64,000 nucleotides of DNA from an uncultured Candidatus Saccharibacteria bacterium (GTDB lineage: Bacteria > Patescibacteriota > Minisyncoccia > Phycocordibacterales > JAACPR01): contig CAZVRT010000001.1 in assembly GCA_964630375.1 (NCBI GenBank), forward strand, positions 135,379-199,378, given 5' to 3'. Positions within the stretch are counted from its first letter, which is position 1. Every line of letters begins with the position of its first letter. The translations under genes were made by a program, and so were the position numbers. The notes under the pieces are model-generated. The model made no database searches. It was given only the letters and a program-made list of their open reading frames with translations, and was not told where the DNA came from. Of this stretch, positions 3,617 to 43,100 are shown one piece after another.

Positions 3617-3622
3617 AAATTT

Positions 3623-4183: not shown

Positions 4184-4249
4184 AAAATAATCATAACCGA
4201 TATTAAGACATCTTGCATTTTTGATTTCTTCTGATAAAGTGTTCTCGTT

Positions 4250-4519
4250 ATGCCTATAACTAAAGGAGCAAAAAAAGCAGTTCGATCTTCTGACAAGAAG
4301 CGAGTTTACAACCTTCGACGAAAGCGAAAGGTTACTTCTGCTGTGAAAGAAGTTAAAAAACTTGTTACAGCTGGAGACGCAAAAGCTGCACAAGAAAAGC
4401 TAAGCGCAGCCTACAAAGCATTGGATAAAGCTGCAAAAATGGGAACTATCAAAAAAGGTAATGCTTCTCGACAAAAATCTCGATTATCAGCCTCTATCAA
4501 AAAAGCTCAAAACAAATAA
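4250..4519 (+). CDS. rpsT: 30S ribosomal protein S20
   Basis: MPITKGAKKAVRSSDKKRVYNLRRKRKV... is a basic, helical bS20-like sequence of 89 aa. Confidence 0.85.
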   Translation: MPITKGAKKAVRSSDKKRVYNLRRKRKVTSAVKEVKKLVTAGDAKAAQEKLSAAYKALDKAAKMGTIKKGNASRQKSRLSASIKKAQNK

Positions 4520-10964: not shown

Positions 10965-10985
10965 TTTTTTTAGCTAAGAATTTTT

Positions 10986-12005: not shown

Positions 12006-12006
12006 A

Positions 12007-12549
12007 ATGCTTAAACTTTTACTGAAAGAAGAAAAAAGAGAAATCAAAATCGAATATGGAATTCGCTTTTTAACAATTCTTTTCTTTGGAATTTCTTTTG
12101 TTTTGATTTTATTTTTAATATCTTTAATTCCAAGTTTTTTTGTTTTGAAAATTGATAAAGATGTTTTGGTTCAAGAGTTAAGTGTTGCTCAAAACAGCGA
12201 ATTAAATGAAGATAAAAAAAGATTGAGAGAGAAATTGCAATCACTTCAAAGCACTTTAAATATCGTTGATGAGCCGACAACTGAAATTTCTTATTACATT
12301 CAACAAATTACCGATCGTCAGCCGAGAAATGTGAGCATATCAAGTATAGGTTTCTCAAAGGAAAATTCTAAAAAAGTTATCCTTTTACAAGGAAACGCAA
12401 ACAGCCGAGAAAGCTTAGCTTCTTTTACCGACTCTTTGGAAATGGTTTCTGAGTTTGAATCAGTGAATCTTCCTTTTTCTAGTTTTGCGAGAGGTGCTGA
12501 TATCCCTTTTTCAATTACAATAAACTTGGTTGATAAAAATGAAAAATAA
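12007..12549 (+). CDS. pilN: PilN-like bitopic membrane protein
   Basis: Short cytoplasmic N-terminus, single TM, periplasmic coiled-coil. Immediately follows pilM. Confidence 0.5.
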   Translation: MLKLLLKEEKREIKIEYGIRFLTILFFGISFVLILFLISLIPSFFVLKIDKDVLVQELSVAQNSELNEDKKRLREKLQSLQSTLNIVDEPTTEISYYIQQITDRQPRNVSISSIGFSKENSKKVILLQGNANSRESLASFTDSLEMVSEFESVNLPFSSFARGADIPFSITINLVDKNEK

Positions 12550-23059: not shown

Positions 23060-23875
23060 ATGAGTTTTGATTCAGATCGTTTTGTTTCAGATAAAGCTTA
23101 CGCAACAGGAAAGACAATGTTTGTCGGAGTTGTGGCACTAACTTTGCTTGCAGCTTTTTTGGCGACAAAAATTATTACAGAAGTTATTGAGTGGAATAAA
23201 GCAGACAATGTTTATCCTACAAATGTAATCAGCGTTTTTGGTGAAGGAGAAGTTGTTGCTGTTCCTGACGTTGCAGAATTTTCATTTTCAGTAAATGAAA
23301 GAGGCGATAGTGTAGAAGCTGCTCAAGGTGTAGCTACTGGAAAAATTAATGCAGCGATTGATTTTCTAAAAGGTAAAGGAATCGAAGAAAAAGATATTGA
23401 AACAACAGGATATAATGCATACCCTCGTTATCAATACACAACATGTACAGGAACTGTTTGTGTAAACGAACAAACATTGATTGGTTATGAAGTTAGTCAA
23501 AATGTTTCAGTAACTGTTCGAGATACTTCAAAAGCAGGAGAATTGCTTTCTGGTGTAGGTTCAACAGGTATTTCAAATATCTCAGGACTTTCATTCAAGA
23601 TTGATGATATGGAAAAGTACAAGCAAGAAGCTAGAATGATTGCAATTGAAAAAGCAAAAGATCAAGCAAAAGATCTTGCAAAAGGTTTGGATGTTAAGTT
23701 GAAAGGAATCATCAACTTTAGTGAAGATTCTGGATATTATGGATATGGTGGAATGAATGCTGTTCCTGAAATGTCTGTACGACAAATGTCAGCAGATATG
23801 GCAGCGTCACCGCAACTTCCTTCAGGAGAAGAGAAGGTTCGAACAAAAGTTTATATTACATACGAATTTAAATAA
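23060..23875 (+). CDS. SIMPL/DUF541 domain protein (periplasmic immunogenic protein-like)
   Basis: N-terminal TM anchor. ISVFGEGEVVAVPDVAEFSFSVNERGDSVEAAQ...GYNAYPRY is characteristic of the SIMPL domain. Confidence 0.6.
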   Translation: MSFDSDRFVSDKAYATGKTMFVGVVALTLLAAFLATKIITEVIEWNKADNVYPTNVISVFGEGEVVAVPDVAEFSFSVNERGDSVEAAQGVATGKINAAIDFLKGKGIEEKDIETTGYNAYPRYQYTTCTGTVCVNEQTLIGYEVSQNVSVTVRDTSKAGELLSGVGSTGISNISGLSFKIDDMEKYKQEARMIAIEKAKDQAKDLAKGLDVKLKGIINFSEDSGYYGYGGMNAVPEMSVRQMSADMAASPQLPSGEEKVRTKVYITYEFK

Positions 23876-25379: not shown

Positions 25380-26264
25380 ATGGTAAACTCTTTAGATATG
25401 AAAAAATTTTTTAAGAATTTTGTAGAAGATTTTAAGAATTCGCTGTATGGAGGAGATTATAAAGGGCACTTTGCTGATAGAAAATTTTCAACTGCTTTGA
25501 AATATGTTTTTAAATTGGTTTCGATTGAAATGCTGGTTGTAATTATTTTTAGTTCGGTATTTTTGTTTCCTGCGGTAAAGCTAATTTTGGATAGAGACAG
25601 CATTGTTGATTTTGTTGATACTCACATGCCAGCAGATAAAAGTATTGAAATAAAAGAGGGAAGAGTAATTACCTCTGATGGAGAACCGATTTTTATAAAC
25701 GCACCTGATAGACTAAAAGAAACCGGAGTTGAGTATTTTGTTGTAATCGATCCTTCAATTACTACAACAGAAAATATAATTCAGTTATTTGAAACTTATA
25801 ACACTGCTAACTTAATAACTTCAAATATGTCTGTGACAAGAAATGAAACAGGTTCTGTCGAAATTACTTCTTTGAAAAATTATCCAGATTTTTTAATTAC
25901 AAATGAAAGTATTTTGGGTATTTACGAAAAAGCGAGACCATTTGTTTTTGTGCTGATTCCTTTGATGGTAATTTTCGGATTTATTTTCGGGACTATTTTT
26001 AGAGTAATTTTCTCACTATTTTTGGCGTTAATAATTTCATTGGGCGTGCTTTTAATTTCAAGATTCAAGAAAATTGATTTGAATTTTAAGCAAGCATATA
26101 TAATTTCAATGTATGCGATAACAATTACAGCTATAATCAGTGTGATTCAATCAATAATTAAAGCTGATGTTGTTGGTTTTATTTTGATGGTTGCTCTTAC
26201 TTTATTGCTAGTTATTGTGAATCTAAAAAATAAAAAAACCGCTGATTACTCAGCGGATAATTGA
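25380..26264 (+). CDS. Hypothetical polytopic membrane protein
   Basis: 294-aa ORF with an N-terminal soluble segment and four C-terminal TM helices. A hairpin lies in its last codons. Confidence 0.45.
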   Translation: MVNSLDMKKFFKNFVEDFKNSLYGGDYKGHFADRKFSTALKYVFKLVSIEMLVVIIFSSVFLFPAVKLILDRDSIVDFVDTHMPADKSIEIKEGRVITSDGEPIFINAPDRLKETGVEYFVVIDPSITTTENIIQLFETYNTANLITSNMSVTRNETGSVEITSLKNYPDFLITNESILGIYEKARPFVFVLIPLMVIFGFIFGTIFRVIFSLFLALIISLGVLLISRFKKIDLNFKQAYIISMYAITITAIISVIQSIIKADVVGFILMVALTLLLVIVNLKNKKTADYSADN

Positions 26265-26599: not shown

Positions 26600-27256
26600 C
26601 TAAGCTTTGTAATCTTGTTTAAGCTCTGGAATTTTTCCTTCTTTTACTAATTCAGATTCTTTGCGGTCTTTTTCTGCATTTTTAAAGTTTTGTTTGATAA
26701 AGCCTTCAATAATATCTTTTTGATGGTATCTGCTTTCTTTTATCTCTGCTTTTTCATCTAATTTTTGAAAAACGATTTGGCAAAATCTTTCTCCTGGGTA
26801 TAGTTTAATAACTTGAGAATCAGTATTGTTTCGAATAGGGATAGCTAGTTGTCCTTTGTACCCAGAATCAACGATACCTGTTAAGTCGACAGATAAACCT
26901 TTTCTGTTTGTTGATGAGCGAGGGTAAAGAATCGCCATTAAGTCATCAGGAATTCCTACTGTTTCAAGTGTTGAAGCTAAAACATATTCACCAGGCAGAA
27001 GATCAAAAGTTTGTGATTTTTCTAATTCAATTACATCAAAATAATCTGGACGGTTTTCGCTTAAATGGTCGATATTTAATGCTTCTCGTCCTTTGTCTGT
27101 AAGATGCCATCTTTTTGGCAAAAGAAATGTGTAGCCAAGTCGCAAGTCTATGGCGTGAGCTTGTAATTGAAATTCATCCAAACTTGGTTCGAAAATAATT
27201 TCGTTAGAGTTAATTTTTTCCAGTATTTGTTTTTTAGTCAGAATAGACATATTCAA
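26600..27256 (-). CDS. dcd: dCTP deaminase family protein
   Basis: HAIDLRLG...PGEYVLASTLE...DSGYKG follows the Dcd/dUTPase-like trimer motif order. Likely start at MSILTKK (27250). Confidence 0.75.
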   Translation of the reverse strand: MNMSILTKKQILEKINSNEIIFEPSLDEFQLQAHAIDLRLGYTFLLPKRWHLTDKGREALNIDHLSENRPDYFDVIELEKSQTFDLLPGEYVLASTLETVGIPDDLMAILYPRSSTNRKGLSVDLTGIVDSGYKGQLAIPIRNNTDSQVIKLYPGERFCQIVFQKLDEKAEIKESRYHQKDIIEGFIKQNFKNAEKDRKESELVKEGKIPELKQDYKA

Positions 27257-27731
27257 ATAATATCGTATTTGGAGATAAGTTTGTACTTGATACCAGCTTT
27301 AATTTTTGTCGCAATTCTTGGGGCAGAAAAGGGACTCCTTCGCCAAATTCTATGTTCTCTTGAGTCAGAAACACTTTTTGGACCAAACCCTTTTCAATGA
27401 ATGTTTTATAAATCTCAGCCCCACCGATAATCGCGACTTCTTTTGTGTCTTCTTTTTCAAGTCTGGCAATTAAATCTTCCGGAGACTCTGATGTTGTTTC
27501 AACTCCGTCGATTTTTAAATCTTGTCGGCTTAAAATAATGTTTCTTCTGTTTTTTAGAGGTTTACCGAAAGTTTCAAAAGTTTTTCTACCCATTATCACT
27601 GTGCCGGCTTCTTTTGTTTTTTCAATGAAAAAATTTTTATCTTCTTTGCTAGTCCAGCTCATCGAATTTTCAGAATCATTTTTTGCAATGAATCCATCTT
27701 TTGTTTCTGCTGCGATTGCGAATACTTGCAT
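27234..27731 (-). CDS. folA: Dihydrofolate reductase
   Basis: MQVFAIAAETKDGFIAKN...TVIMGRKTFETFGKPLKNRRNIILSR matches the DHFR signature. ATG lies 5 nt after the thyA stop. Confidence 0.75.
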   Translation of the reverse strand: MQVFAIAAETKDGFIAKNDSENSMSWTSKEDKNFFIEKTKEAGTVIMGRKTFETFGKPLKNRRNIILSRQDLKIDGVETTSESPEDLIARLEKEDTKEVAIIGGAEIYKTFIEKGLVQKVFLTQENIEFGEGVPFLPQELRQKLKLVSSTNLSPNTILFEYVYSD

Positions 27732-27735
27732 GTTT

Positions 27736-28572
27736 TTATAAAGCAATTTTTAAACCTTTAATTGATCGCATTGGTTTATATTGAGATTCAATTTGAGAAA
27801 CTATTTCTTCAAGTAAAGTTTCATCTTTTTGTTCTGAGCGTTCAAAAGAATTTTCGGGCAAAGTTAATTTGATTGCTTTATGGTCATTTGTTCGAGAAAT
27901 AATTTCTTTTGCGGCATTGTAGTGATTCTCATAAATGTGTGCGTTTGAAATTGAGTGAGAGTAAGTACCAACTTTTACACCAAGTCTTTGCGCAAGAACA
28001 TATTGAAGAAAACAAAATCCTGCGATATCAAAAGGTGCGCCAAGAATCATGTCGTTTGAACGAACAATGTTGTGCATATGAAGTTTTCCATCAATGATGT
28101 TTATGGTGAAAGTGTATGGACAGGGAACATTGGCTTTTTTCTTTAATGAAAGACCGTCTTGTGCTGGATCCCAAGCGATAACAACTCCGTGCCGTGAGCT
28201 CGGTTCTTTTTCAAGAAGTTCAACAAGAAGTTTTATTTGGTCTCGTCCGAAGTGTTTTCGCCATCGGTATCCGTATGCAACAGTTACAACATCGTTTGGA
28301 TTTGTGAAAGCATCCCAGATTTTTGTGTGGTTGCGGAGAAAGTCGGCAGGTTTTCTTGCTCCAGACAAAAACCAGATTTGCTCTACGAATGGTCCGCGAA
28401 CAGGAATTTTTCTTAAAGTTAAAAGAGGGAAACCATCTTCTTCGGGGTTGATTTTAAAATGCATTCCTGGGACGGCGGCTGTTTCTAATTTTGTTCTTTC
28501 TGAAAATTCTCGATAACCTTTTTCAAGTATCTCTTTAAGCATTTCTTGGTAGATTTGGTCAAACTTTGTCAT
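27736..28572 (-). CDS. thyA: Thymidylate synthase ThyA
   Basis: LRKIPVRGPFVEQIWFLSGA...PCPYTFTINIIDGKLHMHNIVRSNDMILGAPFDIA has the catalytic Cys in the P-C-P-Y region. Confidence 0.9.
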   Translation of the reverse strand: MTKFDQIYQEMLKEILEKGYREFSERTKLETAAVPGMHFKINPEEDGFPLLTLRKIPVRGPFVEQIWFLSGARKPADFLRNHTKIWDAFTNPNDVVTVAYGYRWRKHFGRDQIKLLVELLEKEPSSRHGVVIAWDPAQDGLSLKKKANVPCPYTFTINIIDGKLHMHNIVRSNDMILGAPFDIAGFCFLQYVLAQRLGVKVGTYSHSISNAHIYENHYNAAKEIISRTNDHKAIKLTLPENSFERSEQKDETLLEEIVSQIESQYKPMRSIKGLKIAL

Positions 28573-28606: not shown

Positions 28607-29140
28607 ATGCATTATAGACATTCCTTAACTTTTATGGACAAAAAAGAAATTAAATACCCATATCTTCCTGAGGGGAGAGAAATCAAATATGTGTCAGCTG
28701 ACAATCTTTTTATGAAAGAGGCGCGCGCTTTTGCTCGTGAGCACTCACTGGATGATGCAATGCCAAACTCTAGTGTGATGGTGAAAGATGGTAATGTCAT
28801 CGCCCGGGCCGCAAACGGTAGCGATTATCACAAAACTTATGCGTGCGAGAGAGTAAAGCAAGGAATTCCAACTGGGCAAGGTTATGAGCTTTGTGAAGGT
28901 TGTCACCCTAAAAATCACTCTGAACAATCTGTGATCAGAGAAGCACAAGAAAAAGAATTTGATGTCTCTGGTGCGGATATTTATCTGTGGGGGCATTGGT
29001 GGTGTTGTGAACCTTGCTGGAACGCAATGATTGAAAACGGAATCAAAGATGTTTATTTGTTGGAAGGAAGTGAAAAACTTTTTGACAGAGGTCATCCTGA
29101 AAATATCATTGGACGTCAGTTTGAATCGACAGAGGGCTAG
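28607..29140 (+). CDS. comEB: dCMP deaminase (cytidine/deoxycytidylate deaminase zinc-binding family)
   Basis: HSEQSVI (H[AS]E) and CEPC (PCxxC) zinc motifs. The protein ends ENIIGRQFESTEG*. Confidence 0.8.
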   Translation: MHYRHSLTFMDKKEIKYPYLPEGREIKYVSADNLFMKEARAFAREHSLDDAMPNSSVMVKDGNVIARAANGSDYHKTYACERVKQGIPTGQGYELCEGCHPKNHSEQSVIREAQEKEFDVSGADIYLWGHWWCCEPCWNAMIENGIKDVYLLEGSEKLFDRGHPENIIGRQFESTEG

Positions 29141-29153
29141 TTCCTCTTTTTTA
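29098..29153 (+). repeat. Direct repeat, left copy (3' end of comEB plus its terminator)
   Basis: tgaaaatatcattggacgtcagtttgaa-t-cgacagagg-[hairpin]-ttttt. About 47 of 56 positions are identical to 33846..33899. Confidence 0.85.
29131..29153 (+). terminator. Terminator of comEB
   Basis: agagg-gctagtt-cctct hairpin followed by tttttt. Confidence 0.6.
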
Positions 29154-29215
29154 TTTTTAAATTTTTTAGCTTTGGTATAAACTAATATTTAATTTATTAA
29201 ATTAAATATACTTCC

Positions 29216-30544
29216 GTGAAAGATACTGAGGAATTGAAAAATCAAATCAAAAATAAAAAAGTATTGGTAGTTTCAGGTTGTAATTTTTCTTTTCCACTAA
29301 ATTCTGGACCAACTTTGAGATCTATGTTTAACAAGTTTGAAAAAGATAACTTGGCACAAATGTATTTTGCCGGAGATAATATGCCGGATTTTGAATTTTG
29401 CAGTAATTATTTTAAGGTGACTTGGGTTGATATTCTAACTTCGTTAGTGCAAGGGTATTCTGATTGTGGTTCTGTTTACGCCAATACGGATGATTTTGAT
29501 TCGAATGGAACTGTAGAATCACGAAGTATTCTATCATTCTTAATACAAAGGTTTTTATATTCAATTATTCCAATATTTCAAAAGAGTCCTCGTCTGAGAG
29601 ATTTTATCTGGAGATTTAATTCTTGGAAAAGTCCAAAAATGTTAAAGTGGCTAGATGAGTATAAGCCAGATTTGATTTTCTTCAGTCCTGCTGATAGGGG
29701 GTCTTCTCATCAGATTGCTAGATTTATTTCAAATTACACCAGAGCCCCGCTTGTTGTTTGGGTTACTGATGACTATGTCTTATTTCCAAAGCGTATAAAC
29801 TTGATTGATAAAATACAAAAAATAAGATTGAGGAGAATTTTTAGAAAAACTATTTCAATGTCATCTGTTTGTTTTGCAATTGGCGATCGAATGGCCAAAG
29901 ATTACGAAAAGTTTTTTGGAAAAAGATTTATGACAATTATGAACTCGGTCAAAATACAAGATTATGTTGAATATTCGGGCGGACAGAATCTGAACTTTTC
30001 TTATTTTGGTAGTTTGTATCTTGATAGATGGAAAATTTTAATAAAATTAGCAGAGGCAGCGCCTCCTGGGAGTATAAGTGTATATACTGATCTTTCAAAA
30101 CTTCCAAAAAATATTGTTGAAGATATTGTTTTTGAATTTGAAAAGGCTGATATAAAAATTAAGGAATTTGTTAAAGGCGAAGATTTGCGAAAAGCTATGT
30201 TGGATAGCGATATACTTATTCAAGCAGAAAGTGACGATATTGTAACAAAAAGTCTGACGCGGCTTTCGGTGGCTACTAAAATTCCAGAATATTTAATTTC
30301 AGGCAGGGCTATTCTGGGCATTGGTCCACCAGAAGTTGCTTCTATGAAATTATTATCAGAAAACAATATAGGGTTAGTTATTTCTGGTGATAATATTTCT
30401 ATTCAAAATAAAAATCTAAAAAGAATAGTAGACGACCCTGATTATAGAAAAGAGCTTGGTAAGCGCGGGTATGATTATGCAGTTGCAAATTTTGATAATG
30501 ATTTGATTTCGGCAAGGTTTAAGGATATTATCGAAAACATATAA
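29216..30544 (+). CDS. Glycosyltransferase (GT-B fold, GT4-like)
   Basis: 442-aa ORF with GTG start. C-terminal ...SVATKIPEYLISGRAILGIGPPEV resembles the GT4 nucleotide-sugar binding motif. Its position upstream of fnlABC-like genes suggests a FucNAc transferase. Confidence 0.55.
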   Translation: MKDTEELKNQIKNKKVLVVSGCNFSFPLNSGPTLRSMFNKFEKDNLAQMYFAGDNMPDFEFCSNYFKVTWVDILTSLVQGYSDCGSVYANTDDFDSNGTVESRSILSFLIQRFLYSIIPIFQKSPRLRDFIWRFNSWKSPKMLKWLDEYKPDLIFFSPADRGSSHQIARFISNYTRAPLVVWVTDDYVLFPKRINLIDKIQKIRLRRIFRKTISMSSVCFAIGDRMAKDYEKFFGKRFMTIMNSVKIQDYVEYSGGQNLNFSYFGSLYLDRWKILIKLAEAAPPGSISVYTDLSKLPKNIVEDIVFEFEKADIKIKEFVKGEDLRKAMLDSDILIQAESDDIVTKSLTRLSVATKIPEYLISGRAILGIGPPEVASMKLLSENNIGLVISGDNISIQNKNLKRIVDDPDYRKELGKRGYDYAVANFDNDLISARFKDIIENI

Positions 30545-30549
30545 ATAAT

Positions 30550-31575
30550 ATGAAAGATAAAATATTACTAATAACAGGGGGAACTGGTTCTTTTGGAAAC
30601 GCTGCAGTTGAGAAATTTTTAGATACTAATCATTTTAAAGAAATTCGCATATTTTCGAGAGATGAGAAAAAACAAGATGATATGCGTAATTATTTCAGAA
30701 ATCCTAAATTAAAATTTTATATTGGAGATGTGCGTGATCCCCAAAGTTTGGATATTGCGATGAAAGGAGTAGATTATGTTTTTCATGCTGCCGCATTAAA
30801 GCAAGTTCCGTCTTTGGAATTTTTTCCGCTCGAAGCTGCTAAAACACATGTGTTTGGATCACAAAATGTAATTTCTTCCGCGATTTCACACAAGGTTAAA
30901 AAGGTTATATTAATGAGTACAGATAAAGCTGTTTATCCAATAAACGCAATGGGGATCTCGAAAGCTTTAATGGAAAAAGTTGCTGTTGCTGCTTCTAGAA
31001 CCTTGACCGATGATGAAACTGTAATATCTGTGGTGCGTTATGGAAACATTATGGCTTCTAGAGGTTCTGTAATTCCATTATTTTTAAAACAAATAAAATC
31101 GGGCAAAGCACTAACAATTACCAACCCCAACATGACTCGTTTTTTAATGTCCATTCATGATTCTGTGGAACTGGTATTATTTGCTTTTGAAAACGGTAAG
31201 CAAGGAGACATATTTGTAAACAAAGCTCCATCTGGTACGGTCGGTGATTTGGCTGAAGCATTAAAACAGATATGTAATGCTAATAATCCAATACAAGTTA
31301 TTGGGTTAAGGCATGGTGAAAAAACACATGAAACTCTATGTTCTAAAGAAGAAATGGTTGTGGCTCAAGATATGGGTAATTTTTATCGCATACCAGCTGA
31401 TTGCCGAGATTTAAACTACACACTTCAAAATTTACAAAATGATAATTTGGTACAAGAAGGTTATACGTCAGATAACGCTGAACAAAAAAATGTAGAAGAT
31501 ATTAAAAACATATTATTAAAATTGCCTTATATTCGCAGAGAGGTTTTTGGAGAAGATGCCAAACATGACATCTAA
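30550..31575 (+). CDS. UDP-GlcNAc 4,6-dehydratase/5-epimerase (CapD/Cap5E/FnlA family)
   Basis: KILLITGGTGSFGNA (SDR Rossmann), MSTDKAVYP (catalytic YxxxK region shifted as in CapE), 341 aa as in Cap5E/FnlA. Confidence 0.85.
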   Translation: MKDKILLITGGTGSFGNAAVEKFLDTNHFKEIRIFSRDEKKQDDMRNYFRNPKLKFYIGDVRDPQSLDIAMKGVDYVFHAAALKQVPSLEFFPLEAAKTHVFGSQNVISSAISHKVKKVILMSTDKAVYPINAMGISKALMEKVAVAASRTLTDDETVISVVRYGNIMASRGSVIPLFLKQIKSGKALTITNPNMTRFLMSIHDSVELVLFAFENGKQGDIFVNKAPSGTVGDLAEALKQICNANNPIQVIGLRHGEKTHETLCSKEEMVVAQDMGNFYRIPADCRDLNYTLQNLQNDNLVQEGYTSDNAEQKNVEDIKNILLKLPYIRREVFGEDAKHDI

Positions 31576-32692
31576 ACATATCAAAATAGGAATTACGGGA
31601 CAATCTGGATTTATTGGAACACATTTACGTAATACTATGATGCGTAGTCCGGATAAATTTTTTCTTATTGATTTTCATAGAAATTATTTTTTAAACGATG
31701 TTGAGCTGGATAAATTTTGCGAACAATGTGATGTGATTGTGCACTGCGCATCGGTAATTAAAACTGACGATGATGATTTTTATCAAACCAATGTTTTGCT
31801 TGCGGAAAAGTTGGCAAACTCATTAATACGTGTTGGAGGGGATAAGCATTTGGTGATGACGTCTTCTTTACAAGAGGATAAAGATACTTCTTATGGTAAA
31901 TCCAAAAAACTTGCACGTGAATTATTGGCGCAACAATCAAGTCAAAGTAATTTTTCATTTACAGGTATGATAGTTCCCAATGTGTTCGGTCCTTTTATGT
32001 GCCCTTATCATAATTCAGTAATTGCTACTTTTTGCCAACAAATAGTTAAAAATGAAACTCCAAAAATTATAGTTGATAACACTTTGAGTCTTATCTACAT
32101 CGACGAATTGGTTAAAGAAATTATTGATAAAGTTTTAAACAAGGAAAACAATCCTTTGTATATTGTTCCTCATCAATACAAAATCAAGGTTTCTGATTTA
32201 TTAGATAAATTACAAAACTATAAAACATGTTATCAAGATATGAAATGTATTCCTGATATCAGTGATTCTTTTAGTCTAAATTTATTTAATACTTATCTAT
32301 GCTACTTGTTTTCAGAAAATTATTTTCCAGTTCAACTTGATGTTCATGAAGATGAAAGGGGAATTTTTTCAGAAATTGTAAAACTTAAATCAGGAGGTCA
32401 GGTTTCTTTTTCAACCACTCTGCCCGGAGTCATAAGAGGAAATCATTACCATACTAGGAAGGTTGAAAGATTCATTGTGGTAAAAGGAAAAGCTATGATA
32501 GCATTGCGCAAGATAGGTACTAGTGAAGTTTTAAAATTTAATGTTGATGGACAGAAACCTGCTTATGTTGATATTCCGATATGGCATACACACAACATAC
32601 AGAATACGGGTAATGATAGTTTGCATGTTGTTTTTTGGATAAATGAAATTTATAACCCTGATGATTCAGATACTTATTTTGAAAAAGTTTAA
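31547..32692 (+). CDS. Cap5F/FnlB-like NAD-dependent reductase with C-terminal cupin domain
   Basis: IGITGQSGFIG Rossmann N-domain and a C-terminal cupin-like region (GNHYHTRKVERFIVVKGKA), the two-domain architecture of CapF/WbjC. The start could be at Met7 (31565). Confidence 0.65.
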   Translation: MEKMPNMTSKHIKIGITGQSGFIGTHLRNTMMRSPDKFFLIDFHRNYFLNDVELDKFCEQCDVIVHCASVIKTDDDDFYQTNVLLAEKLANSLIRVGGDKHLVMTSSLQEDKDTSYGKSKKLARELLAQQSSQSNFSFTGMIVPNVFGPFMCPYHNSVIATFCQQIVKNETPKIIVDNTLSLIYIDELVKEIIDKVLNKENNPLYIVPHQYKIKVSDLLDKLQNYKTCYQDMKCIPDISDSFSLNLFNTYLCYLFSENYFPVQLDVHEDERGIFSEIVKLKSGGQVSFSTTLPGVIRGNHYHTRKVERFIVVKGKAMIALRKIGTSEVLKFNVDGQKPAYVDIPIWHTHNIQNTGNDSLHVVFWINEIYNPDDSDTYFEKV

Positions 32693-32713
32693 CAGTTATT
32701 AAGTTATTAAATT

Positions 32714-33838
32714 ATGAAATTAAAAGTAATCACAGTGATTGGTACTAGGCCTGAAATTATACGTTTATCTAGGGTAATGCATGCTTTGGATTTTTCTGAA
32801 TCAATAGAGCATGTCGTTGTTCATACTGGTCAAAATTATGATTATGAATTAAATCAGATTTTTTTTGATGAATTAGAGTTGCGTAAACCCAATTATTTTC
32901 TTGATGCTGCTGGAGAAACTACTGCCGATACAATAGGTCAGATTTTTACAAAACTGGATAAAATTCTTGATGTTGAAAAACCAGATGCGTTTTTAGTATT
33001 GGGGGACACAAATAGTTGTTTGAGTACTATTATTGCAAAGAAAAAACATATACCAGTTTTTCACATGGAAGCAGGTAATCGTTGTTTTGATCAGAGAGTC
33101 CCGGAAGAGACTAATCGTAAAATCGTTGATCATATTTCAGACATAAATTTAACTTATAGCAACATTGCAAGAGAGTATTTGATTAATGAGGGATTCCCTG
33201 CGAAGCAGATTATTAAAACCGGCTCACCAATGTTTGAAGTTATTAACTATTATTTGCCTGGTATTTTGTCTTCAAATATTTTGGAGAAACTGAAAATTGA
33301 GAAAGGGAAGTTTTTTGTAGTTTCTTTTCATAGACAAGAAAATGTAGATGATGAGCAAAACCTTTCTTCATTTTTGGAAATACTAAATCTTGTGTCTGAA
33401 AAATATAATTATCCAATTATTGTCAGTACTCATCCTCGGACGCGAGCAAAAATAGAAAAAAGTAATATAAAAATAGATTCCAATATTCATTTTTTGAAGC
33501 CCCTAGGATTTTTTGATTATCAAGCCTTACAAATTAATTCTTTTGCCGTGTTGTCTGACAGTGGAACTATTTCGGAAGAATCATCAATATTAAATTTTAG
33601 AGCGCTTAATCTTCGTGAATCTCATGAAAGACCAGAGGGAATGGAAGAAGCGGCGGCGATGATGGTTGGGTTAAATGCCGACAGGGTTATGCAAGGGCTT
33701 TCTCAGTTGCAGTATCAAAAAACAGATTCTGAAAGAAATTTTAGATTAGTGTCGGATTATTCTGTACCAAATGTATCAGACAAAGTTGTGAGAATAATTA
33801 TTAGTTACGTTGATTACATAAAAAGATTATATAATTAA
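32714..33838 (+). CDS. UDP-N-acetylglucosamine 2-epimerase (non-hydrolysing; Cap5G/FnlC/WecB family)
   Basis: MKLKVITVIGTRPEIIRLS...HTGQNYDYELNQIFF...GDTNS...HMEAGNR are canonical WecB motifs. Confidence 0.85.
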   Translation: MKLKVITVIGTRPEIIRLSRVMHALDFSESIEHVVVHTGQNYDYELNQIFFDELELRKPNYFLDAAGETTADTIGQIFTKLDKILDVEKPDAFLVLGDTNSCLSTIIAKKKHIPVFHMEAGNRCFDQRVPEETNRKIVDHISDINLTYSNIAREYLINEGFPAKQIIKTGSPMFEVINYYLPGILSSNILEKLKIEKGKFFVVSFHRQENVDDEQNLSSFLEILNLVSEKYNYPIIVSTHPRTRAKIEKSNIKIDSNIHFLKPLGFFDYQALQINSFAVLSDSGTISEESSILNFRALNLRESHERPEGMEEAAAMMVGLNADRVMQGLSQLQYQKTDSERNFRLVSDYSVPNVSDKVVRIIISYVDYIKRLYN

Positions 33839-33845
33839 AGCTGGT

Positions 33846-33899
33846 TGAAAATATCATTGGACGTCAGTTTGAAGCGACAGAGGATTAATCCTCTTTTTA
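33846..33899 (+). repeat. Direct repeat, right copy (orphan copy of comEB 3' end plus terminator)
   Basis: It encodes ENIIGRQFEATED* in frame but has no upstream deaminase body. The hairpin is agagg-attaat-cctct followed by ttttt. Confidence 0.85.
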
Positions 33900-33962
33900 T
33901 TTAAATAAAAAAGCAGTCATCCCTTAAGACGACCGCGAAAGAGCTTCAATTTGTTTCTGGTA

Positions 33963-34652
33963 TCACAGCGGTATAGAAGGATCCATTTTGAGAAACCAAT
34001 CCGGAACTTCCGACCTCTTTGTGGCTTCTTCATAATAAATCTTGTACCCAGTTTCTTGGCACTCTGTTTCCAGTAAACCAAACTTTCCAAACAGATCGAA
34101 GAGATGGCGGAACCTTTCCTGAGCTTCTGCAATCAGTTGATGTTGGTCTGCTCTGTGGGTCTGTAACCACAGACATCTTTCGGCGGCGGTGACCAAAATA
34201 CTGAATCCGACTCTCTTAATCTCGTCAAATGAATTGCACAACTTGATGTCTGCACCCATTTCCCAGAAAAGATTGTCAGAATCTTTTTCAAAGATCTTTA
34301 GCAATTTTTTTTCTAGAAAAGTGAAAATTAGTATGACAATGCTGACCACCGTAAAACTCAAGAGTAGTGCGATATCAAGACTTTCTTTGGGAGTCCTACC
34401 AATGATTAAAAAGAAGGCTGACCAGAACACCAATAAGAATGCCATTACGAGCAAAGTATATAGCATATTCAAAGTGTTTTTTTCGATTTGAACTAAATCA
34501 ACCTTCTTTATGTCTGACCAACTTGCGACAAGATAGTCACGAGTCTTGCGATTCATTAACATTTCTGCGATTTTCATTTTGTCTTTCAATGCTGATTGGT
34601 TTATTTCAAAAGCGGAGAGTTTCGGTCTCACTATAAAATGGTTTTCGGCCAT
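33963..34652 (-). CDS. Hypothetical membrane protein, compositionally GC-richer than the core
   Basis: 229 aa with two central TM helices. Its codon usage and GC are clearly higher than flanking genes. Confidence 0.4.
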   Translation of the reverse strand: MAENHFIVRPKLSAFEINQSALKDKMKIAEMLMNRKTRDYLVASWSDIKKVDLVQIEKNTLNMLYTLLVMAFLLVFWSAFFLIIGRTPKESLDIALLLSFTVVSIVILIFTFLEKKLLKIFEKDSDNLFWEMGADIKLCNSFDEIKRVGFSILVTAAERCLWLQTHRADQHQLIAEAQERFRHLFDLFGKFGLLETECQETGYKIYYEEATKRSEVPDWFLKMDPSIPL

Positions 34653-34745
34653 TTACAGTTTTTTCGCTTGCTTGTGATTGTCAGCTTCAATCTTCGTTGC
34701 AAAATTAACAATAATTTTAGCGGACGTCAATTTTTGGGAAATGAA

Positions 34746-34780
34746 TAAGCCGCGGGCGAAGCCCGCGGCTTATTTGATTT
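34746..34780 (+). terminator. Orphan GC-rich hairpin plus T-run with no obvious upstream plus-strand gene
   Basis: aagccgcgggcgaagcccgcggctt followed by atttgatttt. Confidence 0.4.
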
Positions 34781-35071
34781 TAATTGGCACAAAAATCCAA
34801 TTTCTCACGCCAAAAGTTATGATTTTCCTCGGGTGTGAATTTTCAGATACAAGACAATGATTTACTTGCAAATCTGAAGCGGTGTCTTGTTTAAACCTCC
34901 TCAGATTTTCTGGAGTTGCTTCCAGAAAGAACAAGTATTCCGGATAGTACAGTTCTGGTTGCTTCATCTATTAGCTATAATAGCATTTTTTGATAAAATA
35001 TCTTTAATAAGTAAAACGCTATGATTTAACCTCTGCAAAAACTAATATTTATTAAATTAACTATAATTACT

Positions 35072-36244
35072 ATGAAAGATATTGAAATTGCAGAATTAAT
35101 AAAGAAGGAAAATCAAAGACAAGAGAGTGTTATAAATCTTATCGCTTCAGAAAACTATGTTTCAGATGATGTTTTGGCGGCACTTGGTTCAAAATTGAAC
35201 AACAAATACGCAGAAGGTTATCCAAATGCGCGATATTACGGTGGAAATGAAATTGTTGATCAAGTTGAGTCTTTGACACAAAAGCGCGCGCTTGAAGCTT
35301 TTGGTTTAAATGAAAATGAATGGGCGGTAAATGTCCAAGCGCTTTCAGGTTCTCCGGCAAACTTGGCAGTTTATTTTGCGCTTGTAGAAAAAGGAGGAAA
35401 GATAATGGGAATGCGACTTGATCACGGAGGACATCTTACTCATGGTCACAAAGTTTCTGCGACAGGAAGTTTTTATGAATCAATTCAATTCGGAGTTGAT
35501 GAACAAACTGAACTTTTAAATTTTGAAGAAATAGAAAAAATTGCACAGCAAGAAAAACCAAAAATTATTGTTGCTGGTTTTACCGCATATCCGCGAATAA
35601 TTGATTGGCAAAAATTTCGAGAGATTGCTGATAAGGTCGGAGCGTATTTGATGGTGGACATGTCTCATATCGCAGGGCTTGTTGCTGGAGGAGTTTATCC
35701 TTCGCCGTTTCCGTATGCTGATATTGTCACAACAACAACTCACAAAACTTTGCGTGGTCCGAGAAGTGCGCTGATTTTTTCACGAAAAGACGATAGAAAA
35801 TTAAATGAAAAAATAAACAAAGCAGTTTTTCCTGGGCTTCAAGGTGGTCCACACATCAATCAAATTGCCGGAGTTGCAGTTGCGTTGAAAGAAGTAAACT
35901 CAGAAGAATTTAAAAAATACGCTGAGCAAATTGTGAAAAATGCAAAAGCGTTGTCAGACGAATTGCAAAACCTTGGTTGGCGAGTCGTTTCTGGTGGAAC
36001 TGATTCTCACTTGGTTTTGGTTGATACTTGGATGAATGGAAAGGGAATTTCAGGAAAAGAGGCTAGTGATAAATTGGAGGCGGAAGGAATTATCGTGAAC
36101 AAAAACACGATTCCAAACGACCAAAGAAGCCCTGCTGATCCGTCAGGAATTCGTCTTGGTACCGCAGCTGAAACTACTCGCGGAAAAAAAGAAAAAGATT
36201 TTGAGGAGATTGCTAGAAAAATTGACGAGGTTTTGCGAAAATAA
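35072..36244 (+). CDS. glyA: Serine hydroxymethyltransferase
   Basis: LIASENYVS...YAEGYPNARYYGG...LDHGGHLTHG...TTTTHKTLRGPR (PLP Lys in THKT). Confidence 0.9.
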   Translation: MKDIEIAELIKKENQRQESVINLIASENYVSDDVLAALGSKLNNKYAEGYPNARYYGGNEIVDQVESLTQKRALEAFGLNENEWAVNVQALSGSPANLAVYFALVEKGGKIMGMRLDHGGHLTHGHKVSATGSFYESIQFGVDEQTELLNFEEIEKIAQQEKPKIIVAGFTAYPRIIDWQKFREIADKVGAYLMVDMSHIAGLVAGGVYPSPFPYADIVTTTTHKTLRGPRSALIFSRKDDRKLNEKINKAVFPGLQGGPHINQIAGVAVALKEVNSEEFKKYAEQIVKNAKALSDELQNLGWRVVSGGTDSHLVLVDTWMNGKGISGKEASDKLEAEGIIVNKNTIPNDQRSPADPSGIRLGTAAETTRGKKEKDFEEIARKIDEVLRK

Positions 36245-36260: not shown

Positions 36261-36683
36261 ATGCAAATCAAATTCAAAAAATTAAATGAAAATGCAATAG
36301 CTCCAAATTATGCATATCAGTTTGATGCAGGAATGGATTTATTTTGTTCTGAAAATATTTCAATCGAGCCAAATCAGAGAGTACAAGTTTCAACAGGAAT
36401 TGCAATGGAAATTCCGGGAGGTTTTGTCGGATTGATTTGGGACAAAAGTGGATTGTCGCATAAAAGTGGGTTAAAAACTTTGGGAGGTGTTATTGATTCT
36501 CAATATCGTGGGGAAATAAAAATCGGAATAATAAATTTAAGTGATGAAATATTTCATTTTGAAGTTGGGCAGAAAGTTGCACAGATGTTGATTCAAAAAG
36601 TTGAGCAAGTTGATTTGGTCGAGTCGATGGAACTTTCTGAAACTAATCGTGGTGAAGGGGGTTTTGGAAGCACTGGAAAATAA
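36261..36683 (+). CDS. dut: dUTP diphosphatase
   Basis: AGMDL, GLIWDKSGL, GVIDSQYRGEI and a C-terminal GFGSTG give all five dUTPase motifs. Confidence 0.85.
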   Translation: MQIKFKKLNENAIAPNYAYQFDAGMDLFCSENISIEPNQRVQVSTGIAMEIPGGFVGLIWDKSGLSHKSGLKTLGGVIDSQYRGEIKIGIINLSDEIFHFEVGQKVAQMLIQKVEQVDLVESMELSETNRGEGGFGSTGK

Positions 36684-36695
36684 ATCTGAAATAAA

Positions 36696-37385
36696 ATGCA
36701 AACACAAAATAAAAAAGGAAAATTTATTGTGATAGATGGGACAGATGGTTCTGGAAAGGGAACACAAACAGAATTGCTGGTTAATGCACTCAAAGCAAAA
36801 AACTTGGATGTGATAACTTTAGATTTTCCTCAATACGGAAAATCTTCTTGTTATTTTGTAGAAAAATATTTAAGAGGAGAATACGGAACTGCGGATGAAG
36901 TTGGTGCAAAAAGAGCTTCTTTGTTTTATGCGTTAGATCGTTTTGATATTTCAAAACAAATAAAAGATTGGTTGGATGAAGGGAAAATAATTGTAAGCAA
37001 TCGATATGTTTCAGCTAGTATGGGTCATCAAGCTGGAAAAATAAAAGATTTTGAAGAAAGAGAAAAGTTTTTAGATTGGTTGGATGAATTAGAATTTGAA
37101 ATTTGCGAAATTCCCAGACCTGATGAAATTATTTTCTTGTATATGCCGCCAGAAATTGGGCAAAAATTAGTTGATCAGAAATCTGCTCGCGATTATACAA
37201 ATGGTAAAAAGAGAGATATTCATGAAGCGGATTTAGATCATTTGAAAAATGCATCGGAAGCTTATAAATACGTTGCAAATAAATTTAATTGGAAAACTAT
37301 AAATTGTACTGAAGGCGATGAAATTTTGAGTAGAGAACAAATTTTAAATCAGATTTTAAAGGTTTTGGAAGATGTGCTAGACTAG
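36696..37385 (+). CDS. tmk: Thymidylate kinase
   Basis: FIVIDGTDGSGKGTQ P-loop and DRY-like SNRYVSAS region. Confidence 0.85.
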   Translation: MQTQNKKGKFIVIDGTDGSGKGTQTELLVNALKAKNLDVITLDFPQYGKSSCYFVEKYLRGEYGTADEVGAKRASLFYALDRFDISKQIKDWLDEGKIIVSNRYVSASMGHQAGKIKDFEEREKFLDWLDELEFEICEIPRPDEIIFLYMPPEIGQKLVDQKSARDYTNGKKRDIHEADLDHLKNASEAYKYVANKFNWKTINCTEGDEILSREQILNQILKVLEDVLD

Positions 37386-40119: not shown

Positions 40120-43100
40120 ATGACAAACGAGGCAGATGAAACTAACAAAAGTCAAATAGCTCAAAGAGAAGAAAAAATTCTAGAATTTTGGAATCAAAAT
40201 GAAATCTTTAAAAAATCTTTAGAAAAAGAAGCTAAAAATGGCGATTTTGTGTTTTTTGATGGACCTCCTTTTGCAACAGGAATGCCACATTATGGACACC
40301 TTCTTCCTGGGACTGTGAAAGATATTATTCCTCGTTACAAAACCATGAACGGATACAGAGTGACTCGTCGGTGGGGTTGGGATACTCACGGTCTTCCAAT
40401 CGAAAATCTAATTCAAAAAGAAAGAGGTCTTCAAACAAAACAAGATATAGAAGATTTTGGAATTAAAAATTTTAATGAAGCTGCTAGAGCCAGTGTTTTT
40501 CGGTATTTGGATGAGTGGAAAAAAATTATTCCTCGAACTGGTCGTTGGGTAGATTTTGAAGACAACTACATCACAATGGATTCTAAATATATGGAATCTG
40601 AATGGTGGATGTGGAAGACACTTCATCAAAACGGTTTGGCTTATGAAGGTTTTAAATCAATGCATATTTCTCCTTTGCTTGAAACCGCACTTTCAAACTT
40701 TGAAGTAAATCAAAATTACAAAGACATTACAGATTTATCGGCAACTGTAAAATTTGAGTTAGTGGACGAAAAGGGAACTTTTGTTTTGGCTTGGACAACA
40801 ACTCCTTGGACGCTTCCGGGGAATGTCGCATTGGCGATAAATAAAAATCTTTCTTATATAAAAGTAAAATCTGAAAATGAATTTTATATCGTAGCAAAAG
40901 ATTTAGTTGAAAAAGTTTTTGAAGGAAAAGAATATGAAATTATTTCAGAAATTTCTGCCGAAGATTTGCTTGGAAAAAAATACACTCCACCTTTCAATTA
41001 TTTTATAAACGATCCTAATTTAGAAAATCGTGAAAATGGCTGGAAAATTTATCACGGAGATTTTGTGACAACAGAAGATGGAACGGGAATTGTGCATATT
41101 GCTCCAGCTTTTGGTGAAGATGACTTGAATTTAGGTAAAGAAAATAATTTGCCGTTTGTTCAACATGTAAAAATTGATGGAACAATAAAACCAGAAGTAA
41201 AAGAATTTGCAGGACTTCAAGCAAAACCAAAAGAAGATCCGATGCAAACTGATATTGAGTTTGTAAAATATTTGGCTCACAACGGATTTTTGTTTAGCAA
41301 GAAAAAATACACTCACTCATATCCGCATTGTTGGAGAACTGATGCGCCACTTTTGAATTATGCGATGTCTTCTTGGTACATCAAGGTAACTGATTTGAAA
41401 GACAAAATTGTTAAGGAAAACGATAAAATAAATTGGTCGCCTGACTTTGTTGGGAAATCTCGTTTTGGAAATTGGTTGAAAGACGCTAAAGATTGGTCTG
41501 TTTCTCGTGCGCGATTTTGGGGAACACCGATTCCGGTTTGGAAATCAGAAGATGAAAGTGAGATTGCAATAATTGGTTCAGTTGATGAGTTAAAAGAAAA
41601 AACAAAAAGTTCAAATACTTTTGTCGTGTTGCGACATGGAGAAGCTGATCATAATTTAGAAAATAAAGCTTCTGATAGTGATAATCCGCCAAGTAACCTA
41701 ACTCAAAGAGGAAAAGATGACATTGCAAGAACTGCAGAAAATTTTACAGGAGAAACTTTTGATTTAATTTATTCTTCACCTTTAATCAGAACAAAAGCCA
41801 CTGCGGAAATCATTGCAGAAAAAATTGGTTATCCGAAAGAAAATATTATCTTTGATGAAAGAATTGCAGAAGTGAAAACTGGTTTTGATGGACGTCCAAT
41901 TTCAGAATATCGAAATTATTTTTCTTCAAATTTAGAAAAATTCGAAAAAGCTGCGCCAGGTGGAGAAACTCTTTTTGAATTAAAAAAACGAGTTGGAAGT
42001 TTTTTGAAAGATATTGATTCTCAAAATGTTGGAAAGAAAATTTTGGTTGTAACTCACGAATATGTAACTTGGATGATGGTCTCTGCAAATGAAGGTTTGA
42101 ATGTGAAAGATACAGTTGCAATAAAAAATGACACGGAAGATTTTATCGAAACAGGGAAGACTATCGAGTTCGTTCCAAATCGGTTGCCTGTAAATGATAA
42201 TTTTGAAGTCGATTTGCATCGACCATATATTGATGATGTCGTTTTCATGCAAAACGAAAAAATAATGAAAAGAATTCCAGATGTTTTTGATACTTGGGTT
42301 GATTCTGGATCAGTTCCTTTTGCTTCGAATTTTTATCCAAAAAATAAAGAAAGATTTAATCCAGATTCAGGTTTGTTTAAAAAATCAATAAATTATCCAG
42401 CTGACTTTATTTCTGAAAGTTTGGATCAAACACGAGGTTGGTTTTATTCTTTGATTGTTTTGAATACTGCTTTGTTTGGGCATTCTCCTTATAAAAATGT
42501 TGCGGTGACTGGGCTTGTATTGGCGGAAGATGGAAGAAAAATGTCTAAAAGTTTAAAAAATTATCCGGAAATTGATTCTGTTTTAAATAAATTTGGTGCT
42601 GATGCTATGAGATATTATTTAATGTCATCTCAAGCAGTGAAAGCTGAGTCGCTTTTATTTTCAGAAAAAGGTGTTGATGAAGTTTCAAAGAAATTGATTG
42701 GTCGTTTAAACAATGTGCTTTCTTTCTATGAAATGTACAAACATGTTTTGGGAAATGAAAAAGCAAATGAAAGTAAAAATGTTTTAGACAAATGGATTTT
42801 ATCTCGTCTTTCAGAATTGAAAGAACAAGTTACAAATTCTTTAGATAATTACGAAATCGACAGAGCAACTCGACCTTTCATGGATTTTGTTGATGATTTA
42901 TCTACTTGGTATATTCGTCGTTCTCGTGACAGATTTAAAAATGAATCAAGTGAAGATGATCAAGAAAATAATGATGCAAAATTTGCAGCTGCGACAACAA
43001 AATTTGTTTTGAAAAATTTATCAAAACTAATGGCTCCTTTTACGCCTTTTATTGCTGAAGAAATTTATCAAACGCTAAAAGATGAGGGTGATGTGGAAAG

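Follow-up and report, generated by a model that had tools for sequence, protein, structure and literature searches.

The FnlA, FnlB and FnlC enzymes convert uridine diphosphate N-acetylglucosamine (UDP-GlcNAc) to UDP-N-acetyl-L-fucosamine, abbreviated UDP-L-FucNAc, in Pseudomonas aeruginosa, Escherichia coli, Streptococcus pneumoniae and Staphylococcus aureus (PMC5774825). The trio is known as FnlA/B/C in E. coli O26 and S. pneumoniae, as WbjB/C/D in P. aeruginosa O11 and as CapE/F/G in S. aureus. A second kind of described system concerns the way in which genes are captured: orphaned gene 3’ ends that arise by displacement have been explained by a proposed homology-facilitated illegitimate recombination at Rhs, contact-dependent inhibition (CDI) and type VI secretion system (T6SS) loci (PMC5361080). 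Here, we analysed a stretch of 64,000 nucleotides (nt), referred to as the window, from an uncultured Candidatus Saccharibacteria bacterium within the Patescibacteria (GenBank assembly GCA_964630375.1, contig CAZVRT010000001.1, positions 135,379–199,378 of the forward strand). In this window, a 4.6-kb module of four co-oriented genes, encoding a GT4-like glycosyltransferase (GT) followed by FnlA-, FnlB- and FnlC-type enzymes, lies between the deoxycytidine monophosphate (dCMP) deaminase gene comEB and glyA, and is bordered by two diverged copies of the comEB-to-glyA junction.

A gene module for UDP-L-FucNAc synthesis

An earlier note on this DNA, made by a model from the letters and the translated open reading frames (ORFs), had read the four genes as GT4-like, CapD/Cap5E/FnlA-like, Cap5F/FnlB-like and Cap5G/FnlC-like. 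Hidden Markov model searches bore this reading out for the last three genes, which matched sugar-enzyme families. The second gene of the module (30550–31575, plus strand) encodes an FnlA/CapE/WbjB-type UDP-GlcNAc 4,6-dehydratase/5-epimerase (Pfam Polysacc_synt_2, E = 8e-99). It scored 479 bits with the FnlA model TIGR04130 and 320 bits with PseB, below the strict equivalog cutoff of 730 bits. When compared with solved structures, CapE (3vvb, E = 4e-132) was the best match, followed by FlaA1 (2gn4, E = 4e-71). The protein keeps the STDK and M-x3-K motifs (STDKAVYPINAMGISKA, residues 123–139), which can be aligned column for column with CapE. The replacement of the catalytic Tyr of short-chain dehydrogenases/reductases (SDR) by Met in M-x3-K is a hallmark of WbjB/CapE (PMC5774825).

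The third gene (31547–32692, plus strand) encodes an FnlB/CapF/WbjC-type reductase, with an SDR domain and a cupin-like C-terminal domain (Pfam Epimerase and Polysacc_synt_C, E = 6e-47). Its predicted activity is that of a UDP-2-acetamido-2,6-dideoxy-L-arabino-hexul-4-ose reductase. Its gene call is 378 amino acids (aa) long, with ATG 31556 or 31565 as the likely start. It reached 247 bits with NF047837, below the cutoff of 500 bits, and aligned over its full length (residues 14–380) to Cap5F (2zkl, E = 8e-65). The fourth gene (32714–33838, plus strand) encodes an FnlC/CapG/WbjD-type non-hydrolysing UDP-HexNAc 2-epimerase (Pfam Epimerase_2, E = 3e-92), which scored 234.5 bits with TIGR00236, above the cutoff of 210 bits, and matched the structures 4hwg (E = 4e-127) and CapG (7ya2, E = 4e-117). 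The FnlA-like enzyme and the reductase fall below the strict NCBIfam equivalog cutoffs. Overall, the three proteins are strong matches to the CapE/F/G (FnlA/B/C) trio and are predicted to be these enzymes.

As in the described FnlA/B/C systems, the three genes are adjacent and co-oriented in A-B-C order, CapE, Cap5F and CapG are among the best structural matches, the FnlA-like protein has Met for the catalytic Tyr and the FnlB-like protein has the SDR and cupin-like build. Unlike in those systems, the genes belong to a Patescibacterium and are placed in a nucleotide-metabolism cluster instead of a capsule or O-antigen locus, with no Wzx, Wzy or priming transferase nearby.

The first gene of the module (29216–30544, plus strand) encodes the GT, a GT-B/GT4-like glycosyltransferase with a 14-residue N-terminal extension that resembles the start of GlyA. 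Its match to Pfam Glyco_transf_4 was below threshold (E = 6e-4; 20.4 bits, cutoff 28.5), Glycos_transf_1 gave no match, and a profile search against the sequences of the PDB reached an E-value of only 0.005. An AlphaFold (AF2) model of the protein had a predicted local distance difference test (pLDDT) score of 82.7 and a predicted template modelling (pTM) score of 0.80. The top Foldseek matches of this model were mostly GT4-family GT-B enzymes, and included PimB’, PglA, HepE, BshA and MshA (E of approximately 1e-12, probability 1.0). The GT is thus modelled as a GT-B fold that resembles GT4 enzymes. The family is rare, with 98 homologues in 5.8e9 proteins and a best identity of 46%; named homologues occur in Flavobacterium psychrophilum, Chryseobacterium and Rikenellaceae, with one weaker match in Cytobacillus. 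An identification of the GT with WbuA or WfpA of F. psychrophilum was rejected, since those are a 266-aa GT2 and a 400-aa GT4 enzyme, respectively, and the homologue is a different protein of 426 aa.

The FnlA-, FnlB- and FnlC-type enzymes would convert the UDP-GlcNAc pool to UDP-L-FucNAc via UDP-N-acetyl-L-pneumosamine (UDP-L-PneNAc). The GT-B enzyme would then use UDP-L-FucNAc to build a cell-surface glycan, or would add a sugar to an L-FucNAc acceptor within it. Judging from what is known of these families, the module would make L-FucNAc and attach it at the cell surface.

The comEB–glyA site in related genomes

The five closest relatives found had thyA genes 90–94% and glyA genes 80–92% identical to those of the window. 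All five have dcd-folA-thyA and comEB on one side of the site and glyA-dut on the other, with tmk next in most. The content of the site differs between them. In locus L008 there is nothing between comEB and glyA other than a spacer of 111 nt. In L002–L004, a gap of ~380 nt contains a hairpin rich in guanine and cytosine (GC) and one small minus-strand ORF, and the gap in L012 is of the same size. L005 has this arrangement plus an unrelated ORF of 553 aa (10571–12232), and L007 has two unrelated minus-strand ORFs of 182 and 171 aa (3278–4518). No comEB stub accompanies the extra ORFs in L005 or L007. The comEB–glyA spacer is a general variable spot. The earlier note had proposed a search for an empty site by synteny, and L008, in which comEB is directly followed by glyA, provides it: relative to the relatives, the four genes are an insertion.

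The linkage of thyA, comEB, glyA and in part tmk was widespread among 87 related comEB loci across the Patescibacteria, and none of the 87 had a GT or fnl homologue near comEB. Closer relatives with the module were not found in the collections searched; a scan of genome contigs gave 80 comEB loci, all without it, and a scan of metagenome contigs with a degenerate pattern of the comEB tail gave only three distant, high-GC matches. We considered whether the module might instead be ancestral at this site and have been lost from the sampled relatives when the flanking repeats recombined. Direct repeats around 4.7 kb would favour such a precise loss, and the codon usage of the module is host-like. 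Against this stand its absence from the 87 loci, the other cargo or lack of cargo at the site in the relatives, and the lack of any homologue above 46% (GT) or 58% (FnlB) identity, with the named ones belonging to Bacteroidota, so that an ancestral presence appears very improbable.

Duplicated junction sequences at both ends of the module

The left repeat S1a (29098–29161, plus strand) comprises the last 14 codons of comEB, a terminator-like hairpin (29131–29147) and a T-run that reaches 29156. The right repeat S2a (33846–33909, plus strand) is an orphan comEB 3’ stub of 14 codons, encoding ENIIGRQFEATED and a stop codon, followed by a hairpin (33879–33894) and a T-run. The two are 80% identical across 64 nt without a gap. 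Their core, a 38-mer at 29098–29135, recurs at 33846–33883 with one mismatch (37/38 nt); these are its two occurrences in the window, whereas 100 dinucleotide shuffles of the window contained no match, in line with the zero expected by chance. The left copy is the tail of the dCMP-deaminase ORF (28607–29140) together with its terminator-like hairpin. The frame of the right copy opens only at 33835, 1 nt ahead of the stop codon of the epimerase gene (33836–33838), and this copy is therefore a stub without a gene body upstream. Its hairpin folds with −11 kcal/mol (z = −3.1 relative to shuffled sequence) and is likely the terminator of the module. The direct repeat, the genuine comEB end on the left and the orphaned tail with its retained hairpin on the right had all been described in the earlier note and were confirmed by these alignments.

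The two copies differ unevenly. The first 28 nt of the comEB tails are identical (28/28) and share the synonymous states ATC, GGA and CAG, which are absent from the orthologues. Directly after, the identity drops to ~64% in the hairpin and T-run (23/36). The stub keeps the ending that is the consensus of the clade (EATED and stop; GATTAA; 38/43 to L008), and the ending of the functional comEB is derived (ESTEG and stop; GGCTAG; 34/43 to L008). Overall, S1 and S2 are about as diverged from each other as S2 is from the orthologous junctions of other species, with 91% versus 88% identity in the tail (to L008) and scores of 37 versus 46 in the upstream region. Inverted repeats at the boundaries of the module were limited to A/T-rich low-complexity pairs, hence there is no transposon-like signature. 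The best sigma-70-like match of the region, TTGACA-16-TATCAT (11/12), lies at 29082–29109 inside the comEB 3’ end, with its −10 element within the repeat core and its −35 element just outside. Similar hexamers are kept in the relatives, and the match may reflect mere coding constraint (LFDR...ENII).

The earlier note had confined the duplication to the comEB 3’ end. This was too narrow, as a second repeat shows that the upstream region and first codons of glyA were also copied and are read into the GT. The left copy, S1b (29162–29245, plus strand), matches 35010–35100, which is the upstream region and first codons of the window’s own glyA; it is a diverged copy of the proximal upstream region, the start codon and approximately the first 10 codons, and consists of the 54 nt upstream of the GT ORF and approximately the first 10 GT codons. 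The start regions of GT and glyA read GTGAAAGATACTGAG and ATGAAAGATATTGAA, respectively. The local alignment score of S1b with glyA was 56, compared with 22.1 ± 3.1 and a maximum of 43 in 2000 dinucleotide shuffles, and none of 1267 tiles of the window reached it. With any orthologous glyA upstream region, S1b scored at most 38. The copy carries further substitutions and indels relative to the glyA upstream region, and the spacer in S1 is compact (75 nt), without the GC hairpin and small ORF. In a global alignment, the whole of S1 (29098–29245) was collinear with 33846–33909 joined to 35010–35100. It follows that the duplication covers the entire junction, from the comEB tail and terminator to the glyA upstream region and glyA start, and extends beyond the comEB 3’ end. 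A likeness of S1 to the region upstream of the 553-aa gene of L005 (TTAGCTTTG) was also considered and discarded, as its score of 25 was not significant (21.7 ± 3.6 in shuffles).

The glyA-like first codons are read in frame into the GT ORF. Homologues of the GT begin at approximately residue 15 of the window protein (MKILVVSHNSF...), so the 14-residue extension MKDTEELKNQIKNK lies outside the enzyme family; it is also of low confidence in the AlphaFold model. Transcription of the module would start from the duplicated glyA-type upstream region, and translation would start at GTG 29216, in the same context as the ATG of glyA. Transcription would end at the stub hairpin, facing the convergent terminator-like hairpin of the neighbouring gene orf229. 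Taken together, the module probably uses the duplicated glyA-type leader and start codon and ends at the hairpin of the stub.

On the right, S2a is not adjacent to glyA. The interval 33910–35071, the contents of which had not been mentioned in the earlier note, separates the two and falls into two parts. The first is a second, separate insert of 0.8 kb (33910–34741) with orf229 on the minus strand (33963–34652) and its own terminator-like hairpin (33936–33913). The 229-aa product is probably a membrane protein, as judged by eye, and had no Pfam, NCBIfam or PHROG match. Its family is almost an orphan, with five related cluster representatives among 1.84e9 proteins, and the gene is absent from the relatives examined. 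With a GC content at third codon positions (GC3) of 0.44, compared with 0.26 ± 0.055 in the window, and a codon-usage rank of 2/48, orf229 is compositionally foreign. This insert came later and interrupted the right-hand copy of the junction. The second part (34742–35071) consists of a GC-rich hairpin (34742–34776; 16-bp stem, −29 kcal/mol), a 65-aa ORF on the minus strand (34770–34967) and the glyA upstream region S2b (35010–35071). L002 and L005 have the same layout of a hairpin and a small minus-strand ORF (73 and 67 aa, respectively), which identifies 34742–35071 as the ancestral spacer. The small spacer proteins are very divergent and belong to no family, and both hairpin and ORF are missing in L008. 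Neither the 65-aa ORF nor the inserted ORFs of L005 and L007 could be assigned with Pfam, NCBIfam or PHROG. Relative to the ancestral spacer, the window has two extra pieces, the module and the orf229 insert.

Both repeats could be accounted for by a single in-place duplicative insertion. A foreign fragment, or a circle with a copy of the junction, would have been joined at approximately codon 10 of glyA on one side and codon −14 of comEB on the other, duplicating the ~470-nt junction by a Campbell-type single crossover or by an unequal sister-chromosome exchange bridged by the fragment. Afterwards, the left copy would have lost the hairpin and the small ORF (~330 nt), the right copy would have gained orf229, and both would have diverged. 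The collinearity of S1 with the split S2, the closer likeness of S1b to the window’s own glyA upstream region than to that of any orthologue and the derived synonymous states shared by the first 28 nt of both tails all agree with this, and only a duplicative insertion leaves both essential genes intact. However, the deletion in S1 and the strong decay elsewhere are extra steps, and gene conversion or chance would be needed to keep 28–38 identical nt beside a stretch of ~64% identity; at a neutral divergence of ~30%, we estimated the probability of 28 consecutive identities at ~5e-5. In addition, it is the functional tail, and not the unconstrained stub, that departs from the clade consensus. 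We regard an insertion in place, the main rival of the capture favoured below, as possible, though somewhat unlikely.

As the window belongs to a metagenome-assembled genome, the two ends of the module might also reflect an assembly chimera in which two genomes were fused through a short repeat common to both. However, the 6489 nt from thyA to orf229, including both junctions, were identical in another assembly (Logan, SRR16797977, locus L001), although that assembly may stem from the same reads as the window assembly. The host glyA-like leader of the GT and the host-like codon usage of the module also speak against a chimera, as does the length of the 38-nt repeat, which is shorter than the k-mers typical of metagenome assemblers. 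Such an artefact seems extremely improbable.

Source of the module

Two unrelated contigs, L009 and L010, carry a homologue of the GT directly upstream of fnlA. The L009 genes are arranged as GT-fnlA-x-fnlB-fnlC and belong to a large locus that also contains rml genes, a flippase (Wzx) and a priming transferase. The best named relatives of the FnlB-like protein are from Bacteroidota (53–58% identity), with the exception of one Balneolaceae entry. In this phylum, the O-antigen of F. psychrophilum contains L-FucNAc, and its locus has three genes for UDP-L-FucNAc synthesis (PMC6519341). The module resembles Bacteroidota O-antigen and capsule loci such as L009 in that the same rare GT family directly precedes fnlA in the same gene order, and in its low GC content (L009 34%, L010 28%, module 32%). 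It differs in being only a four-gene sub-block, and L009 has an extra 144-aa ORF between fnlA and fnlB. The identities between the window and the Bacteroidota-type locus were 45% for the GT, 51% for FnlB and 69–71% for FnlA and FnlC, which indicates that the transfer was not recent or that the donor is unsampled.

The composition of the module was close to that of the window. Its GC content was 0.323, compared with 0.352 for the window, its tetranucleotide distance was unremarkable (z = 1.75, rank 7/119) and the codon usage of its four genes was ordinary (ranks 18–37 of 48). The lateral acquisition put forward in the earlier note is in keeping with the absence of the module from the 87 related loci and with the Bacteroidota affiliation of the closest named GT and FnlB homologues, which are 45–58% identical; the GC and tetranucleotide profiles that the note had suggested gave only weak evidence of a foreign origin. 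The module may have come from a Bacteroidota-like polysaccharide locus, in which GT-fnlA-fnlB-fnlC forms a sub-block.

Integration of the module

No integrase, transposase or recombinase was found when the module and all ORFs of 180 aa or more in the 64-kb window were searched, in agreement with the earlier note, and the four ORFs of the module are all sugar enzymes. The window encodes recA, recO, ruvA and pilM/N, which are no more than indirect hints of natural transformation in the host. We favour, at about even confidence, a capture by host recombination anchored in comEB, without a dedicated integrase, with displacement of the comEB 3’ end, in which a related Patescibacterium would be the immediate donor; this route of arrival is the least certain part of our interpretation. 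The module would first have come from a Bacteroidota-like polysaccharide locus. The donor would already have carried the comEB tail, terminator and glyA leader fused to GT-fnlABC; its DNA would have recombined within comEB on the left and formed an illegitimate joint on the right, at comEB codon −14, whereby the resident 3’ end was moved downstream and became a stub. A donor-derived S1 fits the data better than a recent in-place copy, because the divergence is uneven and S1 differs from S2 about as much as S2 does from the orthologues.

Stubs of comEB with other cargo occur in two further lineages. In a Kaiserbacteria contig (L060; MFKY01000057.1, 1285–2480), an intact comEB is followed by a minus-strand PemK/MazF toxin gene and a comEB stub of ~175 nt. 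In a Paceibacterota contig (L034; DATDWX010000024.1, 101–1430), an intact comEB is followed by a YoeB/RelE-like ORF, an overlapping minus-strand ORF without a family match and a 160-nt stub with 76% protein identity. The window stub begins at codon −14, and those of L060 and L034 begin near the WGHWWACE motif, at about codons −55 to −63.

The positions of these stubs bear on another explanation, a decayed site-specific island. A tyrosine or serine recombinase element would have inserted at the comEB 3’ end, supplied a replacement end and later lost its integrase. As at islands in the 3’ ends of tRNA and protein genes, which are flanked by attachment (att) sites attL and attR, there are flanking direct repeats, the target is kept intact and empty sites exist. 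The near-perfect 38-nt core repeats, of which one completes the gene and the other is orphaned, the empty site in the relatives and the recurrence of comEB stubs in other lineages would all be expected of such an island. Unlike in att islands, no recombinase was found in the module, all four ORFs of which are accounted for, or in any window ORF of 180 aa or more. Furthermore, the repeat runs into the upstream region and start codon of a second gene, which is not expected of an att site, and the positions in comEB differ between lineages. These three features together argue against a fixed att site, and we consider a decayed island improbable. Rfam and tRNA scans gave no match at the locus, and the five tRNAs of the window all lie at 4.5–17.6 kb. 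The earlier note had likened the insertion to islands that regenerate tRNA 3’ ends. That analogy leaves the second repeat unexplained, and the comEB stubs of the two other lineages start elsewhere. The insertion itself, the pathway, the lateral origin and the lack of an integrase stand, and the tRNA-island analogy is the part of the earlier proposal that falls.

Closer parallels to the favoured capture by 3’-end displacement are the Rhs, CDI and Vibrio T6SS effector-immunity arrays, in which an intact gene is likewise followed by new cargo and an orphan 3’ fragment. Other features shared with 3’-end displacement systems are the lack of an integrase, orphan lengths that vary by lineage and a conserved upstream homology anchor. 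Unlike at those loci, a housekeeping dCMP-deaminase gene would serve as the anchor in place of a polymorphic toxin, the cargo consists of a sugar-nucleotide pathway here and of toxin-antitoxin genes in L034 and L060, and there is a second duplicated piece, the glyA leader, at the other boundary of the cargo.

Several observations weigh against this capture as we propose it. No donor or intermediate genome was found, with the best GT homologue at 46% identity in the 5.8e9 proteins searched, and displacement moves the fusion of the glyA leader with the GT to an unseen donor, in which a duplicative event would itself be needed. No mosaic breakpoint was detectable in the window comEB in blocks of 84 nt. 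In L060 it is the stub, and not the functional tail, that is slightly more foreign, and the nearest-neighbour differences in L034 and L060 are within noise. The host-like codon usage of the module implies that the transfer was old or that the donor was of similar, low-GC composition. With regard to the proposed surface glycan, no flippase, polymerase or priming transferase was found in the 64-kb window.

A wider hypothesis is that the comEB 3’ end of Patescibacteria repeatedly serves as a landing pad without an integrase; each capture would bring in cargo, here a surface-glycan pathway and elsewhere toxin-antitoxin genes, and leave the displaced 3’ end behind as a stub. The high conservation of comEB across the phylum, combined with a tolerant spacer, would then allow DNA from other lineages to be captured repeatedly. 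We hold this to be unlikely on present evidence.

Gene neighbourhood of the module

The insert splits a cluster for deoxythymidine monophosphate (dTMP) synthesis, with dcd-folA-thyA and comEB on the left and glyA-dut-tmk on the right. The left arm consists of dcd (26600–27256, Pfam DCD), folA (27234–27746, Pfam DHFR_1) and thyA (27736–28572, Pfam Thymidylat_synt), all on the minus strand and in the same order in L002, L005 and L007. It is followed by the intact comEB on the plus strand (28607–29140; Pfam dCMP_cyt_deam_1, E = 7.6e-11). The right arm, which is conserved among the relatives, consists of glyA (35072–36244, Pfam SHMT), dut (36261–36683, Pfam dUTPase) and tmk (36696–37385, Pfam Thymidylate_kin), all on the plus strand. 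The genes are as the earlier note had listed them in describing a coherent dTMP-synthesis cluster on both sides of the insert, and the cluster is widely conserved in Patescibacteria. Its term "supercluster" is apt, since nrdA, nrdB and folD lie upstream of dcd-folA-thyA in the window. Between these blocks are DUF1189 and SIMPL-family genes (25380–26264 and 23060–23875), nusG and rplK, and most of this arrangement is also present in L002 and L005, which suggests that an extended neighbourhood of deoxynucleotide and folate genes is conserved.

Homologues of comEB (n = 1337; 72–81% identity in close relatives) begin at ATG 28637, inside the ORF. The window ORF has a 10-codon extension, MHYRHSLTFM (28607–28636), ahead of this start used by most homologues, and a similar peptide, HYRQNLNFM, precedes comEB in L007 and P0005, so that some genomes may truly possess this extension or leader. 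With the NCBIfam ComEB equivalog, the window protein scored 19.7 bits (cutoff 219), and comEB is a loose label for what its sequence indicates to be a dCMP-deaminase-family enzyme.

Two other features of the window were observed. The isoleucyl-tRNA synthetase (40120–43596) has a histidine-phosphatase domain (His_Phos_1) inserted at residues 502–666, an architecture also found in L005, L007 and L008. The strongest compositional outlier of the window is the region 56500–63600, notably 59703–61658, with the top tetranucleotide distances. It encodes a 651-aa PG_binding_1 protein with the most deviant codon usage (1.83, mean 0.96), adjoined by a Lamin-tail/PKD-domain protein.

Implications for Patescibacteria

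Patescibacteria have tiny genomes and are thought to be largely episymbiotic, and the routes by which they gain new functions are poorly documented. The locus offers a fully resolved example of gene capture, in which the empty site is known, both junctions can be read and the biochemistry of the cargo is well defined. This cargo, a UDP-L-FucNAc pathway with a transferase, would alter the cell surface, through which the cell meets hosts and phages.

The capture is clean but not unprecedented, as sugar-nucleotide modules gained by horizontal transfer and gene ends that were displaced or duplicated are both known. Its additional interest lies in the reuse of an upstream region, a start codon and a terminator-like hairpin, which suggests how a captured module could be wired in: a duplicated housekeeping upstream region and start codon are placed in front, and a duplicated terminator-like hairpin behind. 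It lies also in the possibility that comEB is a recurrent capture site in Patescibacteria. That comEB stubs recur beside other cargo hints at such a preferred site. If this is true, the landing pad would be a general route by which reduced genomes acquire accessory genes, and one that can be read from the stubs left behind.

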